A DNA stretch of 13,511 nt from a virus (Duplodnaviria; Heunggongvirae; Uroviricota; Caudoviricetes). The DNA is taken from the IMG/VR virus record IMGVR_UViG_2606217106_000016; one strand, written 5' to 3'. The number at the start of each line of letters is the position of its first letter. The stretch's first letter is position 1. Positions 7,451 through 13,138 of this stretch are shown in pieces. The notes under the pieces were generated by a model. The model worked only from the letters and a program-made list of their open reading frames with translations. It was not told the DNA's origin and searched no databases. Both the position numbers and the translations under genes were made by a program.

Positions 7451-7531
7451 ATGAACCATGAAGAAATGAATCAGCGCTTCAGTCGTCTGGAAAATGAAAT
7501 TGCTGAACTGAATAAAAACTGTCGGCGCTGA
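7451..7531 (+). CDS. Tiny ORF (26 aa, MNHEEMNQRFSRLENEIAELNKNCRR), translationally coupled to the next ORF (ATGA overlap)
   Basis: GGGGAGAG 7437-7444 about 7 nt upstream of ATG 7451; the stop TGA 7529-7531 overlaps ATG 7531. Below the ORF-track length cut-off; found by manual translation. Confidence 0.25.
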   Translation: MNHEEMNQRFSRLENEIAELNKNCRR

Positions 7532-8007
7532 TGCCTTCTGAAGATGAAAAAAAACGCCGCGATGAGCAGTTTGCTGCGTTTGACGATTATTGTCGGAAAG
7601 TGATGAGCAGAAATCTCGCAGAGTGTTTCAGTATTCATAATGATAATTTCAGTGAGCTGGAATGGGAGTGTAACCGGCCATCCTTTGTTGTATCCGGTGA
7701 TGCTGGGAAAATAACCATCTCAGAAAATGGGAAAGTAACACCTCCATCGCACCAGCACAGTGAGGAGCTCATTGAATTTGCCATTGATTACCTGAAGAAC
7801 AATAAAAAGCAGGGGCTGATGAAGCGCGTTGGCCGTTGCATGGGATATCTTCAGGTAGCCGCTGAGATTGAAGCGCTGGCCAGTGGTGCTGATAAGGATG
7901 CAATTGTGCGGGAGGCTCTTCTTCGTGATTTTAATACTCCACCCTTTAAAAAAGTGCCGGCTTACTGGCTTCATCCGGGGCTGACTTATCTTAAAGTGCG
8001 TATTTAG
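7531..8007 (+). CDS. Hypothetical cytoplasmic protein (158 aa) inserted between holin and endolysin; function unknown
   Basis: Track ORF 7531..8007; no TM segment, charged N-terminus (MPSEDEKKRRDEQ); visibly more AT-rich than flanking lysis genes; no family recognised. Confidence 0.6.
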   Translation: MPSEDEKKRRDEQFAAFDDYCRKVMSRNLAECFSIHNDNFSELEWECNRPSFVVSGDAGKITISENGKVTPPSHQHSEELIEFAIDYLKNNKKQGLMKRVGRCMGYLQVAAEIEALASGADKDAIVREALLRDFNTPPFKKVPAYWLHPGLTYLKVRI

Positions 8008-8043: not shown

Positions 8044-8577
8044 ATGAACACCAAAATCAAATACGGCCTGTCGGCTGCCGTTCTGGCGCTGATTGCCGCT
8101 GGTGCGCCTGCGCCTGACATTCTCGACCAGTTTCTGGATGAAAAGGAAGGTAACCACACCACGGCATACCGTGATGGCGCGGGTATCTGGACCATCTGTC
8201 GCGGTGCCATTCTGGTGGATGGTAAACCTGTCGTCCCGGGCATGAAGTTGTCGAAGGAGAAATGCGACCAGGTTAACGCCATCGAACGTGATAAGGCGCT
8301 GGCATGGGTGGAGAAAAACATCAAAGTGCCATTGACCGAACCCCAGAAAGCGGGGATCGCGTCATTCTGTCCGTACAACATTGGTCCCGGTAAGTGTTTC
8401 CCGTCGACGTTTTACAGACGAATTAATGCTGGTGATCGCAGGGGAGCATGTGAGGCGATTCGCTGGTGGATTAAGGACGGTGGCAGAGACTGCCGTATTC
8501 GTTCAAACAACTGCTACGGTCAGGTATCCCGTCGTGACCAGGAGAGCGCGCTGGCGTGCTGGGGTATCGACAGATAA
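8044..8577 (+). CDS. R: SAR endolysin R (T4-lysozyme-like muramidase with N-terminal signal-anchor-release domain), 177 aa
   Basis: N-terminal Gly/Ala-rich weakly hydrophobic segment GLSAAVLALIAAGAPAP followed by the catalytic E-x8-D-x5-T motif in EKEGNHTTAYRDGAGIWTICRG; typical partner of a pinholin. Confidence 0.85.
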   Translation: MNTKIKYGLSAAVLALIAAGAPAPDILDQFLDEKEGNHTTAYRDGAGIWTICRGAILVDGKPVVPGMKLSKEKCDQVNAIERDKALAWVEKNIKVPLTEPQKAGIASFCPYNIGPGKCFPSTFYRRINAGDRRGACEAIRWWIKDGGRDCRIRSNNCYGQVSRRDQESALACWGIDR

Positions 8578-8671
8578 GCAGAATATTTTGCTGAAAAATA
8601 AGGCATGGCCACGCGGGCGGATAACATGAAATCCTGCGAACTGGCGAAACGTAAGTGAATAAAAGTAAAAA

Positions 8672-8706
8672 CCCCGTTTGTTGGCAGCAAGCGGGGTTTT
8701 GTTTTT
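8672..8706 (+). terminator. Rho-independent terminator (9-bp stem CCCCGTTTG/CAAGCGGGG with one G-U pair, 7-nt loop, T-rich tail)
   Basis: ccccgtttg-ttggcag-caagcgggg-ttttgttttt, about 95 bp after the endolysin stop; A-rich 5' flank. Confidence 0.6.
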
Positions 8707-8869
8707 ATGGCAGTAAGCTATGGGAGGCTGCCTTGATTGATTTTAGCAAACTGATTAGGGAGTTGCGACTCATGATTAGTCAATTACCAAACTGGAAATT
8801 TTTGCTGGTCTGGAGCATCCCTTTTTTATGGGTAGTATCCCAGTTAATTGTGGCAATTAAGGGGTAGCT

Positions 8870-9001
8870 ATGTCAGACAAACTCATAACGCCGGCAAAGG
8901 TCCTGTGTGTGATTGTCGGTATTTCATTTTCACTAATGCTGGTTGCTCTTTTTCTGTCCCTCGCCTGGGTGATGTTGTCTTCGTCGGGGCTGCTGGGGTG
9001 A
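8870..9001 (+). CDS. Small hydrophobic peptide ORF (43 aa, single TM)
   Basis: RBS AAGGGG 8858-8863, ATG 8870; MSDKLITPAKVLCVIVGISFSLMLVALFLSLAWVMLSSSGLLG; stop TGA 8999-9001 overlaps the GTG of the next small ORF. Confidence 0.3.
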   Translation: MSDKLITPAKVLCVIVGISFSLMLVALFLSLAWVMLSSSGLLG

Positions 9002-9120
9002 CAGTGACTGATGACATCAGCAGAGCGCTGGCTTTTGCTATTAAGTGGGTGGCTGTTGGTATTGCTGTGTCTCCGATGCTGTATGGGCTGGCTAAACTGG
9101 TCATTGCGCTGAAATCGTGA
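8998..9120 (+). CDS. Small hydrophobic peptide ORF (about 40 aa, GTG start), paralogous motif with the next ORF
   Basis: GTGA overlap with the preceding ORF; ...DDISRALAFAIKWVAVGIAVSPMLYGLAKLVIALKS; 3' part of track ORF 8848..9120. Confidence 0.3.
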   Translation: MTVTDDISRALAFAIKWVAVGIAVSPMLYGLAKLVIALKS

Positions 9121-9131
9121 ACTTTAAAAAG

Positions 9132-9218
9132 ATGAGTGCTGAACTTATTCGGGCAATGGCATTTGCCATTCGTATTGTGGCCATTGCTGTTCTGGTCTGG
9201 GCAATCCGTTGGTGGTGA
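9132..9218 (+). CDS. Small hydrophobic peptide ORF (28 aa)
   Basis: [28 protein letters not shown]; shares the RA(L/M)AFAI(K/R)xVA(V/I) motif with the preceding ORF; stop TGA 9216-9218 lies 1 nt before the Rz ATG 9220. Confidence 0.3.
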
Positions 9219-9219
9219 T

Positions 9220-9687
9220 ATGAACCGTGTTCTGTGTGTGGTGATTATTGTCCTGCTGGTAGCCTGTGGTGTGCTTAGTCTGGGGCTGAATCATTACCGC
9301 GATAACGCCATCACCTACAAAGCGCAGCGCGATAAAAAAGTCAGTGAGCTGAAACTGGCGAATGCCACTATTACTGATATGCAGCAGCGCCAGCGCGATG
9401 TTGCTGCGCTCGATGCAAAATACTCGAGGGAATTAGCCGATGCGAGAGCTGAAAATGAAACTCTGCGTGCTGATGTTGCCGCTGGTCGTAAGCGCCTGCG
9501 GGTCAACGCCACCTGCCCCGGTACCGTGCGTGAAGCCACCGGCACCTCCAGCGTGGATAATGCAACCGGCCCCCGACTGGCAGACACCGCTGAACGGGAT
9601 TATTTCATCCTCAGAGAACGGTTGATGACAATGCAGAAGCAGCTGGAAGGGGCGCAGGAATATATCCGCACTCAGTGCCTGAAATAA
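9220..9687 (+). CDS. Rz: Rz i-spanin (inner-membrane spanin subunit), 155 aa
   Basis: ATG 9220 after GGTGGTG; N-terminal TM ([20 protein letters not shown]), coiled-coil periplasmic domain, C-terminus ...[10 protein letters not shown]; lambda Rz-like. The track start at 9136 belongs to the upstream small ORF frame run-on. Confidence 0.8.
9440..9625 (+). CDS. Rz1: Rz1 o-spanin lipoprotein, embedded in Rz in the +1 frame (61 aa)
   Basis: [61 protein letters not shown]: lipobox LVVSAC, proline-rich; near-identical in pattern to lambda Rz1. Confidence 0.8.
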
Positions 9688-9729
9688 GTTTTGTTGATGC
9701 GCCGTATCGTCGCTGTATTCCCTCATTAA

Positions 9730-10589
<860 letters not shown>

Positions 10590-12019: not shown

Positions 12020-13138
12020 TTAAATAACCAACTTAACCCATTCCTGACCTCGGGTATCGTTATAGCGATCGGTGGTAGCCTGGACTTTATGTCCCAGTAA
12101 TGTTTTTGTATCGACACCCTGTGCGCGGTACAACCGTTCTGACAGGGAGCGTTGTTCATGAAATGTTGGCGGTGTTTTTCCTGCTGGTGGAATTATTCCA
12201 GCCAGATCTCGCGCTTTGGCGAAGTAATCGCTCAGGTTGTCTTTACTCATCGGTTTTGGTTGTTTCTGGTGCCTACTATGGATTAGATATGGACTTAATA
12301 TTCTGTCTCGGCACCCATCAATAACTTCTTTTAACGTTATCCCAATGGCATCACAGCGTAGTGTAAGCGGTAACGCCAGGCGCATTCCGGTTTTTCCCTG
12401 GGTGATATGCAAGTGTTCGTTCCACACATCTGAAAAACGCATGTGGCAAATGTCATCACGGCGCTGACCAGTAACAATCGCAAGAAGCATTGCGTTACGG
12501 ATAAAGTGTTTTTCAGGCGTTGCGTTGTAAATTTTTTGCCAGTCTTCCAGGGTGAGTCTGGCTCTGGTTACTTTAGGGATCGGTTTACGGGTAGCCTCCG
12601 GAGGATTCCATCCAGGAGGAACTTCTCCTGCATGCTGTGCTTCTTTATAAATATCAACCCATAATCCACGATTTACTCTCGCTGTGCTGACCATGTCTTT
12701 ATCCAGCCAATCATCCAGTATTAATGCAAAGTCTCTTACTTCCAGTTCTTTCAATGGATGGTTTCCCAGACGGGAAACCAGGTATGCAGCCATTCGGGCT
12801 TTTTCTTTGTGAGTTGTAGCTGCAATATCTCCATTTTTCAGTCGCGTGTCCTGTATTTTCAGATATCGATCAACCCATGCCTTTAATCTGATACCCCGAC
12901 GTTTTGTTGCTGACGGACTTTCATCAATTTTGCGCATGAAATATTCAGCTTCTGCTGCAGCTATTCGCTGATTGGCTGTGGAAGCGATTTTTTCTGCCTT
13001 ACCTTTGTCTGTTCCGAGTCCGTGAAATTTTCCAGTCACAGGATTTTTATACTGGTAGTAAACTCTGCCAGTTCTGCGATCAAACTTTTCGTAAAGACCG
13101 GCTACGTCAGTGCTGTTTTTTCGTGGCCTCGGTGACAT
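12020..13138 (-). CDS. int: Lambda-family tyrosine integrase (372 aa)
   Basis: N-terminus MSPRPRKNSTDVAGLYEKFDRRTGRVYYQYKNPVTGKFHGLG parallels lambda Int (MGRRRSHERRDLPPNLYIRNNGYYCYRDPRTGKEFGLG). C-terminal catalytic region PPTFHEQRSLSERLY...LLGHKVQATTDRYNDTRGQEW matches lambda PPTFHELRSLSARLY...LLGHKSDTMASQYRDDRGREW (H-x-x-R, catalytic Tyr). Confidence 0.9.
   Translation of the reverse strand: MSPRPRKNSTDVAGLYEKFDRRTGRVYYQYKNPVTGKFHGLGTDKGKAEKIASTANQRIAAAEAEYFMRKIDESPSATKRRGIRLKAWVDRYLKIQDTRLKNGDIAATTHKEKARMAAYLVSRLGNHPLKELEVRDFALILDDWLDKDMVSTARVNRGLWVDIYKEAQHAGEVPPGWNPPEATRKPIPKVTRARLTLEDWQKIYNATPEKHFIRNAMLLAIVTGQRRDDICHMRFSDVWNEHLHITQGKTGMRLALPLTLRCDAIGITLKEVIDGCRDRILSPYLIHSRHQKQPKPMSKDNLSDYFAKARDLAGIIPPAGKTPPTFHEQRSLSERLYRAQGVDTKTLLGHKVQATTDRYNDTRGQEWVKLVI

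Follow-up and report, generated by a model that had tools for sequence, protein, structure and literature searches.

The DNA analysed here, a stretch of 13,511 nucleotides (nt) of the IMG/VR virus record IMGVR_UViG_2606217106_000016 (hereafter the window), is a lambdoid prophage of the Escherichia coli group, in whose lysis cassette the gene of the endolysin, R, is separated from that of the inner-membrane spanin subunit, Rz, by an array of small open reading frames (ORFs). Sequence comparisons indicate that this array consists of four genuine genes, ORF0 to ORF3, whose products of 28-44 amino acids (aa) are helical and hydrophobic, which bear the marks of purifying selection, and which are tied by position to the endolysin-spanin junction. 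Their relatives are found at this junction in thousands of enterobacterial prophages, including most Shiga toxin (Stx) phages. The products are presumably single-pass proteins of the inner membrane, as judged from hydropathy and predicted structures, and our best explanation, to which we assign a probability of roughly 45%, is that they are accessory inner-membrane proteins of the late operon that modulate lysis.

Organization of the small-gene array

The gap between R and Rz measures 642 base pairs (bp) (R stop 8577, Rz ATG 9220) and holds an intrinsic terminator and four tightly linked small ORFs (Table 1). An earlier note on this stretch, made from the sequence alone, had placed a segment of about 640 bp between two genes that are usually contiguous, as they indeed are in the Qin prophage of E. 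coli K-12, and had described three small ORFs within it. All three are real, and their coordinates, the stop/start overlap at 8998-9001 and the stop at 9216-9218 followed by the Rz ATG were given correctly, but a fourth, ORF0, was overlooked. Good Shine-Dalgarno sequences precede ORF0 (GGGAGG, 5 nt upstream of its TTG) and ORF1 (AAGGGG, 5 nt upstream of its ATG). The junctions are GTGA or ATGA overlaps or gaps of 1-12 nt: 2 nt separate the ORF0 stop from the ORF1 ATG, the GTG at 8998-9000 overlaps the ORF1 stop TGA at 8999-9001, an alternative ORF3 start, GTG 9117, overlaps the ORF2 stop, and a single base parts the ORF3 stop from Rz. The linkage of the ORFs to one another and to Rz that the earlier note described is thus borne out, and in other loci ATGA overlaps join the same genes.

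The same region has been annotated with other boundaries. Database models place the start of ORF0 too far upstream, at GTG 8655 within the terminator region. A 90-aa open frame (8848-9120), like a 51-aa RefSeq version, over-extends ORF2; the upstream part of the over-extended model is ORF1 sequence read in another frame, where the ratio of nonsynonymous to synonymous substitution rates (dN/dS) exceeds 1 and coding is not conserved. The PHROG family phrog_3246 (90 aa) likewise appears to be an over-extended ORF call. ORF2 of the window is a short form of its family, without the N-terminal extension and the ATG of the 48- and 60-aa forms. The occurrence elsewhere of 38-aa, ATG-started forms (P0112) shows that this short core is a normal variant. 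A -1 slip at G_GGG_TGA that would fuse ORF1 to ORF2 was considered and rejected, as the ORF1 3' end is the same in loci where Rz follows it and ORF2 is missing.

In their physical character the four products are alike, with strongly hydrophobic segments scoring 1.9-2.8 in Kyte-Doolittle windows. ORF0 has an amphipathic N-terminal half followed by one transmembrane segment (best 17-aa window 2.08), and AlphaFold models ORF1 as one helix over residues 3-38 of 43 (mean confidence, pLDDT, 84.8) and ORF2 as a single helix over residues 2-37 of 38 (pLDDT 94.7). These results agree with the earlier description of the ORFs as genes of small single-helix membrane proteins. The C-terminal flanks are of 0-2 residues with a net charge of 0 to +1 (...GLLG, ...ALKS, ...IRWW and ...AIKG).

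Modularity and coding constraint

The modularity of the array, its codon-level constraint, the conservation of product length, the translation signals and coupling, and the physical character described above together argue that all four ORFs are to be regarded as genuine genes. A sensitive blastn search with positions 8700-9230 against 5426 complete E. coli genomes recovered parts of the R-Rz region in 1944 of them, and the blocks of similarity start and stop at ORF boundaries: ORF1 alone (query 171-302), ORF2 alone (305-419), ORF1 with ORF2, or ORF0 with ORF1. The full order R-ORF0-ORF1-ORF2-ORF3-Rz of the window recurs in 73 of the 80 best IMG/VR loci, which are near-identical to it and add little diversity. 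Elsewhere the modules are rearranged. The order R-ORF2L-ORF1-Rz is seen in a prophage of E. coli strain 9000 (L005), in L004 and in the inducible, plaque-forming PhiR12 phages, R-ORF0-ORF1-Rz in L003, R-ORF2L-ORF1-ORF2-ORF3-Rz in L007 and L008, and R-ORF2-ORF3-Rz likewise among the fetched loci. Further genes enter the array in R-34 aa-ORF2-~49 aa-ORF3-Rz (L006), in R-ant-(truncated ORF0)-ORF1-Rz (L087) and in R-ant-ORF50-Rz of the related Stx phage BP-4795, whose ORF50 is an ORF1 homologue.

The two arrangements with ant are instructive as to translation. In L087 (1783-1878) a 31-aa truncated ORF0 is coupled to ant by an ATGA overlap, and in BP-4795 (L105 2486-2632) ORF50 has ATA at the position of the ORF1 ATG of other loci and begins instead at an ATG farther upstream, which overlaps the stop of ant. 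Such re-starting of small ORFs in fusions at the end of ant suggests that selection has maintained the translation of the membrane helices.

Pooled Nei-Gojobori estimates over the distinct nucleotide sequences collected for ORF1, ORF2 and ORF3 gave in-frame dN/dS values of 0.17 for ORF2, 0.31 for ORF3 and 0.42 for ORF1, against 0.6-10 in the shifted frames (0.85 and 1.53 for ORF1), with the qualification that the sets are small (6-14 distinct sequences per family) and, being gathered partly by protein similarity, bias dN downward. ORF0, represented by two distinct sequences, stands outside this set. The variable columns of ORF2 are distributed 17/5/30 over the three codon positions. These patterns, which answer the comparison of synonymous and nonsynonymous change that the earlier note had put forward as a check, point to purifying selection on ORF1, ORF2 and ORF3 in their annotated frames only. 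Length is conserved as well: complete ORF1 relatives are mostly of 43-44 aa down to about 62-65% identity and form 103 clusters at 90% identity, the 228 clusters of ORF2 come from E. coli, E. marmotae, Salmonella and Shigella, and identical or near-identical 28-aa products of ORF3 are found in about 1000 contigs.

These observations bear directly on the view that the array is non-functional, that is, made up of chance frames or fragments of a decayed gene kept as a spacer or as a translational-coupling ramp for Rz. Several features of the window would fit such a view, namely the GTG start and shortened N-terminus of ORF2, the absence of a Shine-Dalgarno sequence before ORF3, the gene remnant at bases 9120-9131, and the deletions that the host prophage itself has suffered. 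Against it stand the frame-specific constraint, hundreds of intact, length-conserved copies, the independence of each module, the 38-aa ATG-started form of ORF2, and the want of any longer intact ancestral gene among the 5.8 billion and 1.84 billion proteins searched or in the fetched loci; the database 'proteins' of 71-104 aa are over-called frames running through the terminator hairpin or wrong-frame readings of ORF1. The view is therefore largely refuted and very improbable. The same evidence disposes of the earlier proposal that the ORFs are the decayed remains of one gene, since no locus carries a single longer real gene and the ORFs occur alone or reordered elsewhere; the accompanying claim that they are not chance frames is sustained, every one of them being intact in many other loci.

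Relationships among the small proteins

Three families can be recognized among the products: ORF0 (phrog_6632), ORF1 (phrog_4906), and a family typified by an AFAI(K/R) motif that is present in two paralogous copies, the long ORF2 and the short ORF3. The motif common to the latter two, (D/E)(I/L)xRA(L/M)AFAI(K/R)xVA(V/I), is present as the earlier note had observed, and the paralogy proposed there is supported by a common match to phrog_4493 and by intermediate or hybrid proteins. These include P0112, the 38-aa proteins represented by P0116 with an ORF3-type N-terminus (MSADFIRA) and an ORF2 C-terminus, P0318, which is ORF2-like and ends in RWW, and P0323, which joins an ORF2L N-terminus to an ORF3 core. 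Sequence relationships of this kind identify ORF2 and ORF3 as paralogues. The family is very narrow, as an exhaustive HMMER search of 1.84 billion representatives returned only 20 for it, and a scan for the AFAI(K/R) motif over one genome per GTDB species gave no confirmed relative, the family being absent from these species representatives.

ORF1 is a family separate from ORF2/3, the profile-profile comparison of the two giving a probability of 1%. ORF0 shares with ORF2/3 its endings (RWW, IKG/LKS) and a DFSK/DISR-like N-terminal motif, and the corresponding comparison gave a probability of 6% (P=0.006), which is not significant. A single superfamily of all the small ORFs was considered on these grounds and is not demonstrated by the two profile comparisons. 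In the Qin-like cassette of L006 (1163-1865), R and Rz are separated by five small membrane-protein ORFs chained to one another, and these include two further families, one of 34 aa (MTPKAANIAG...) and one of about 49-65 aa (MIKAETT...), the latter also present in L096. The MIKAETT... gene, which in L006 precedes ORF3, has left a remnant of its 3' end in the window between ORF2 and ORF3, at bases 9120-9131.

Phyletic patterns and cassette contexts

The small-ORF families are confined to Enterobacterales, and ORF1 and ORF2/3 are found only in Escherichia, Shigella and Salmonella; the names attached to ORF1 entries are mostly E. coli with a few of Shigella. Homologues of ORF0, of 44-45 aa, beginning MIDFSKLIREL and started by ATG or GTG, extend to Citrobacter, Enterobacter, Klebsiella, Providencia and Salmonella. 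Among phage records, 276 contain full-length ORF1 homologues (63-77% identical), mostly in Stx1 and Stx2 phages where the gene is usually unannotated, and 53 contain ORF0-like genes, including H-19B, SPN3UB and SEN34.

Four endolysin types and three spanin types are found in cassettes with the order endolysin, terminator, one or more small membrane-protein ORFs, spanin. The endolysin and holin contexts comprise a GH24 signal-anchor-release (SAR) lysozyme with an S21 holin, a GH19 enzyme with a lambda-S-type holin, and a GH108 enzyme or M15 peptidase with holin_8/holin_3_7, and the spanin contexts comprise Rz/Rz1, an overlapped 92/61-aa pair in Enterobacter, and a 51-63 aa lipoprotein of the phiP27 type (phrog_7528). 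In the GH108/M15 cassettes an Rz homologue is absent and the phrog_7528 lipoprotein is found instead (L089 2075-2257, L090 1891-2082, L096 3306-3461 and, in phiP27 itself, L107 2528-2683); at most loci with this lipoprotein an ORF1-, ORF2- or ORF3-like gene lies just upstream. Kongari et al. 2018 list it as the separated outer-membrane spanin (o-spanin) of phiP27, the shortest spanin of their survey (PMC6139136). The inner-membrane spanin (i-spanin) assigned to phiP27 (20348-20542) overlaps a 90-aa ORF on the opposite strand, for which reason the assigned inner-membrane partner of the lipoprotein looks to be in doubt.

This raises the alternative that the small proteins are inner-membrane partners of outer-membrane lysis lipoproteins and hence part of the machinery that disrupts the outer membrane. 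The small genes do stand directly upstream of a lipoprotein given as an o-spanin (PMC6139136) in cassettes that lack an Rz homologue. However, their tails past the helix reach about 11 residues at the most, a length much too small to span the periplasm, phiP27 has the lipoprotein without these ORFs, and the window itself holds a complete Rz/Rz1 pair, so that we regard this alternative as quite improbable. As a main explanation, the more specific candidate that they supply the missing i-spanin of the phiP27-type lipoprotein was rejected for want of a periplasmic domain and because phiP27 is without them.

Comparison with known membrane proteins

All four ORFs match PHROG small-protein profiles over their full length, and the PHROG families concerned (4906; 1115/4493; 6632; 3246) are all labelled as of unknown function. 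With the holins and pinholins (S21, PF04971) they share small size, hydrophobicity, at least one transmembrane helix and a place in the lysis cassette, but they are without the charged hydrophilic C-terminal domain, and a genuine S21 holin is already present at 7232-7447. No holin family in Pfam or PHROG was matched by the small ORFs at E<=0.1-1, whereas the S21 holin of the cassette matches PF04971; the missing domain and the missing family match led us to reject them as holins. With the spanins, including Rz/Rz1 and the minimal phiP27 pair (PMC6139136), they share one predicted helix, similar to the anchor of an i-spanin, and a position directly upstream of the spanin gene with translational linkage to it. 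They differ in lacking a periplasmic domain and in being present in addition to a complete Rz/Rz1 pair. The shortest i-spanin periplasmic domain catalogued, that of phiP27, has 32 residues (PMC6139136), and helices covering residues 2-37 of 38 in ORF2 and 3-38 of 43 in ORF1 leave no room for one, so that a role as i-spanins was also rejected. The small ORFs match neither Phage_lysis (PF03245) nor DUF2514 nor the PHROG spanin families, whereas the adjacent Rz matches PF03245.

The closest likeness is to the accessory lysis membrane proteins, namely the P2 LysA, P1 LydB and T4 RI antiholins and the Mu gp25 releasin (PMC9239132), which similarly lie in the cassette beside the endolysin and spanin genes, are expressed late with the lysis genes, are embedded in the membrane, and stand outside the core set of holin, endolysin and spanin, being either dispensable or regulatory. 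The array differs from them in having no sequence similarity, in the far smaller size of its products (28-44 aa, one helix, almost no soluble domain), and in being a shuffled multi-gene set. By analogy, it would be most like P2 LysA, P1 LydB and Mu releasin in its working, without being a member of those families.

The type I toxins (Hok, Ldr, TisB, DinQ, Ibs) offer another comparison on account of their length, their one hydrophobic helix and their basic or aromatic ends. They differ from the small ORFs, which match no toxin family, have no dedicated promoter and are set in a polycistronic late operon. Ldr-, TisB- and DinQ-like peptides resemble the small ORFs in size, helix and C-termini. 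One alternative is accordingly that the products are membrane-depolarising toxic peptides, of a type I toxin or holin-helper kind, which would lower the proton-motive force and trigger the pinholin earlier. Their single hydrophobic helices of 28-44 aa with basic or aromatic C-termini (RWW, KS) are consistent with this. A sigma-70-like site on the minus strand at 8876-8847 (CTGACA, 18 nt spacer, TG-CACAAT), directed leftward over ORF0 toward the symmetric terminator, could likewise give rise to an RNA antisense to ORF0. However, this single hit compares with 3.0 such sites expected from shuffled sequences and is not above chance, no Pfam toxin or holin family is matched at E<=1, it would be unusual for toxin genes to stand four in a row, none with its own regulation, and the peptides co-occur with unrelated holin types. 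A toxin function thus appears distinctly unlikely.

Presumed expression with the late operon and a proposed role

No sigma-70-like promoter was found on the + strand between the terminator and Rz, and the terminator lies upstream and not downstream of the small genes, which would be reached by read-through. Because of these features and the chaining to Rz, the array is assigned to the Q-dependent late (lysis) operon, the Q antiterminator being encoded upstream (2433-3044), and would be expressed late. A moron with its own promoter and a downstream terminator was rejected as a candidate, there being no promoter-like site, with the sole strong terminator upstream (8668-8707) and the last ORF 1 nt from Rz. 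The same features bear on another alternative, namely that the products benefit the lysogen as exclusion factors, blocking DNA entry by superinfecting phages or altering a host membrane protein while riding in a tolerated slot. Many known exclusion proteins are small inner-membrane proteins, and the present genes are accessory, patchy and heavily shuffled, with duplications and swapping of families, as is typical of phage accessory genes, and are restricted to Enterobacterales. Yet genes that have no promoter of their own, follow a terminator and are translationally chained to Rz are not expected to be expressed in an uninduced lysogen; in addition, there is no PADLOC match, and dN/dS values below 1 give no arms-race signature. 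This alternative is rather unlikely.

Taken together, we favour a mechanism in which the products of the four small genes, each of one hydrophobic helix, would be inserted as single-pass proteins into the inner membrane and would be expressed late in induction together with the holin, endolysin and spanin. The endolysin-spanin interval is prone to recombination, its modules being acquired, lost, duplicated and shuffled in order, and the peptides would be dispensable auxiliary factors by which the membrane steps of lysis, either holin triggering or spanin action, are adjusted. A lysis-modulating role is our best guess because the position between endolysin and spanin is fixed whatever the types of holin, endolysin and spanin that accompany it. 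The evidence for a part in lysis is that of position, and the antiholin-like regulators, depolarising toxins and spanin accessory factors named in the earlier note are candidate functions, no known family being matched.

Several observations weigh against this reading, in addition to the downward bias on dN mentioned above. R and Rz are contiguous in K-12 Qin, where rrrQ and rzpQ overlap with no small ORFs between them, and likewise in lambda. PhiP27 is without the ORF1-3 families, and this, together with Qin and lambda, implies that the small ORFs are in principle dispensable for lysis. One copy, from Salmonella (L104), is an exception to the position, lying outside any lysis cassette where a prophage end is degraded, and the interval between two lysis genes may be only a site at which insertion or recombination is tolerated. 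ORF3 has no Shine-Dalgarno sequence and therefore depends on reinitiation. The small ORFs gave no match in Pfam, NCBIfam, PADLOC or PDB sequence searches, and no publication on the peptides was found by topic, RefSeq accession, peptide string or PHROG number; the supplementary tables of the Sakai ribosome-profiling study of small genes likewise make no mention of them.

An extension of the lysis-modulating reading would see in these peptides a previously unrecognized class of lysis component, made up of interchangeable single-helix peptides of 28-60 aa that act on the last membrane steps with any holin, endolysin and spanin and that, since most Stx phages contain an ORF1 homologue, would also influence the timing of Stx release. 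Members of such a class might gate or localise spanin-mediated membrane fusion, or set the trigger point of the holin. We consider this extension doubtful.

Other features of the window

Table 1. Features of the lysis cassette and its surroundings in the window.
Feature	Position	Strand	Evidence and remarks
Q antiterminator	2433-3044		upstream of lysis cassette
Three tRNA genes (Met-CAT, Arg-TCG, Arg-TCT), then STnc100 and AgvB	3811-4438		
Small RNA (sRNA) STnc100	4170-4378		
Anti-sRNA AgvB	4379-4438	-	
SASA/DUF6645 esterase	4438-6516		
DUF826 protein	between esterase and holin		
S21-type (class II) pinholin	7232-7447	+	start of lysis cassette; Pfam PF04971 Phage_holin_2_1 E=9e-33; phrog_20/9876 holin
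158-aa ORF	7531-8007		holin-endolysin interval; matches only the C-terminal half of phrog_1085 (141-296 of 296)
Endolysin R, GH24 lysozyme	8044-8577	+	Pfam PF00959 E=1.4e-24; phrog_7 endolysin
Conserved R 3' untranslated region (UTR)	8578-8667	+	invariant motif GGATAACAC(G/A)AAATC
Intrinsic terminator between R and small ORFs	8668-8707	+	15-pair stem 8668-8700, 6 G-C pairs, T-run
ORF0, 44 aa (M/L-IDFSKLIRELRLMISQLPNWKFLLVWSIPFLWVVSQLIVAIKG)	8733-8867	+	TTG start; phrog_6632 E=1.3e-12
ORF1, 43 aa (MSDKLITPAKVLCVIVGISFSLMLVALFLSLAWVMLSSSGLLG), predicted single-helix membrane protein	8870-9001	+	phrog_4906 E=4.5e-21
ORF2, 40 aa (GTG 8998) or 38 aa (GTG 9004)	8998/9004-9120	+	phrog_1115 E=6.4e-25; phrog_4493 E=5e-17
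ORF3, 28 aa, RWW-ending, short paralogue of ORF2	9132-9218	+	ATG start; phrog_4493 E=4.4e-7
Rz, inner-membrane spanin subunit	9220-9687	+	Pfam PF03245 Phage_lysis E=3.6e-50; phrog_13 Rz-like spanin E=1.2e-77
Rz1, outer-membrane lipoprotein spanin subunit, 61 aa	9440-9625	+	inside Rz, +1 frame; lipobox, proline-rich mature part
Collagen-like tail-fibre tandem repeat	9963-10318		45-bp unit, 7.9 copies
DUF4376 tail-fibre-assembly-like gene, then integrase on minus strand	beyond ~9780 (regions 9700-10533, 12020-13138)		

The endolysin has a hydrophobic N-terminus (MNTKIKYGLSAAVLALIAAGA) and, by analogy with R21, would be of the SAR type. Its 3' UTR is conserved, with 76% mean column identity and long invariant runs in an alignment of 9 E. 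coli and Salmonella loci. The strong terminator that the earlier note had seen at 8672-8706 is real; its minimum free energy fold has z=-2.4, and three pairs of its stem are preserved by two-sided compensatory changes across loci. As an equivalent hairpin is also found 3' of GH108, M15 and GH19 endolysins, a terminator after the endolysin is a general feature of such cassettes. The segment 8578-8707 looks like a regulatory element or a small RNA derived from the 3' UTR, and when the whole window was scanned against Rfam at E<=1 no match was obtained within 8578-9220.

Elsewhere in the window, the block of tRNA genes, STnc100 and AgvB downstream of Q occupies the site at which stx is found in Stx phages. 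The 158-aa ORF between holin and endolysin takes the place of a YdfR-family gene of related prophages and may be a truncated or recombinant gene. The assignment of Rz1 is based on its resemblance to the lambda and 933W Rz1 proteins tabulated in PMC6139136. Similarity to other E. coli prophages ends at about 9780, just past Rz, and since the collagen-like repeat, the DUF4376 protein and the integrase are found beyond this point, the packaging, head and tail (morphogenesis) genes have apparently been lost.

Implications

The proteins themselves are already catalogued in RefSeq as 'hypothetical protein' (WP_001280935, WP_042004856 and WP_032140280), and what appears to be undescribed is that small membrane-protein genes form a shuffled array of general occurrence where endolysin and spanin meet in the best-studied of lysis cassettes. 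The present analysis defines three small-protein families (28-60 residues across their forms) with good comparative support, which are suited to small-protein studies, and corrects their annotation with respect to the missing ORF0, the over-extended ORF2 models and the unannotated ORF1 of most Stx phage records. Textbooks take the lambdoid S-R-Rz/Rz1 cassette as their model of phage lysis, and it has been thought to be fully accounted for; conserved and widespread extra membrane-protein genes within it would, if the proposed role is correct, point to an unstudied accessory layer of lysis. About one third of complete E. coli genomes carry genes of this set, and most Stx-converting phages have ORF1. 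As Stx lysogens rely on phage lysis to release their toxin, proteins that modulate the timing of lysis, if that is what these are, would be of medical relevance.

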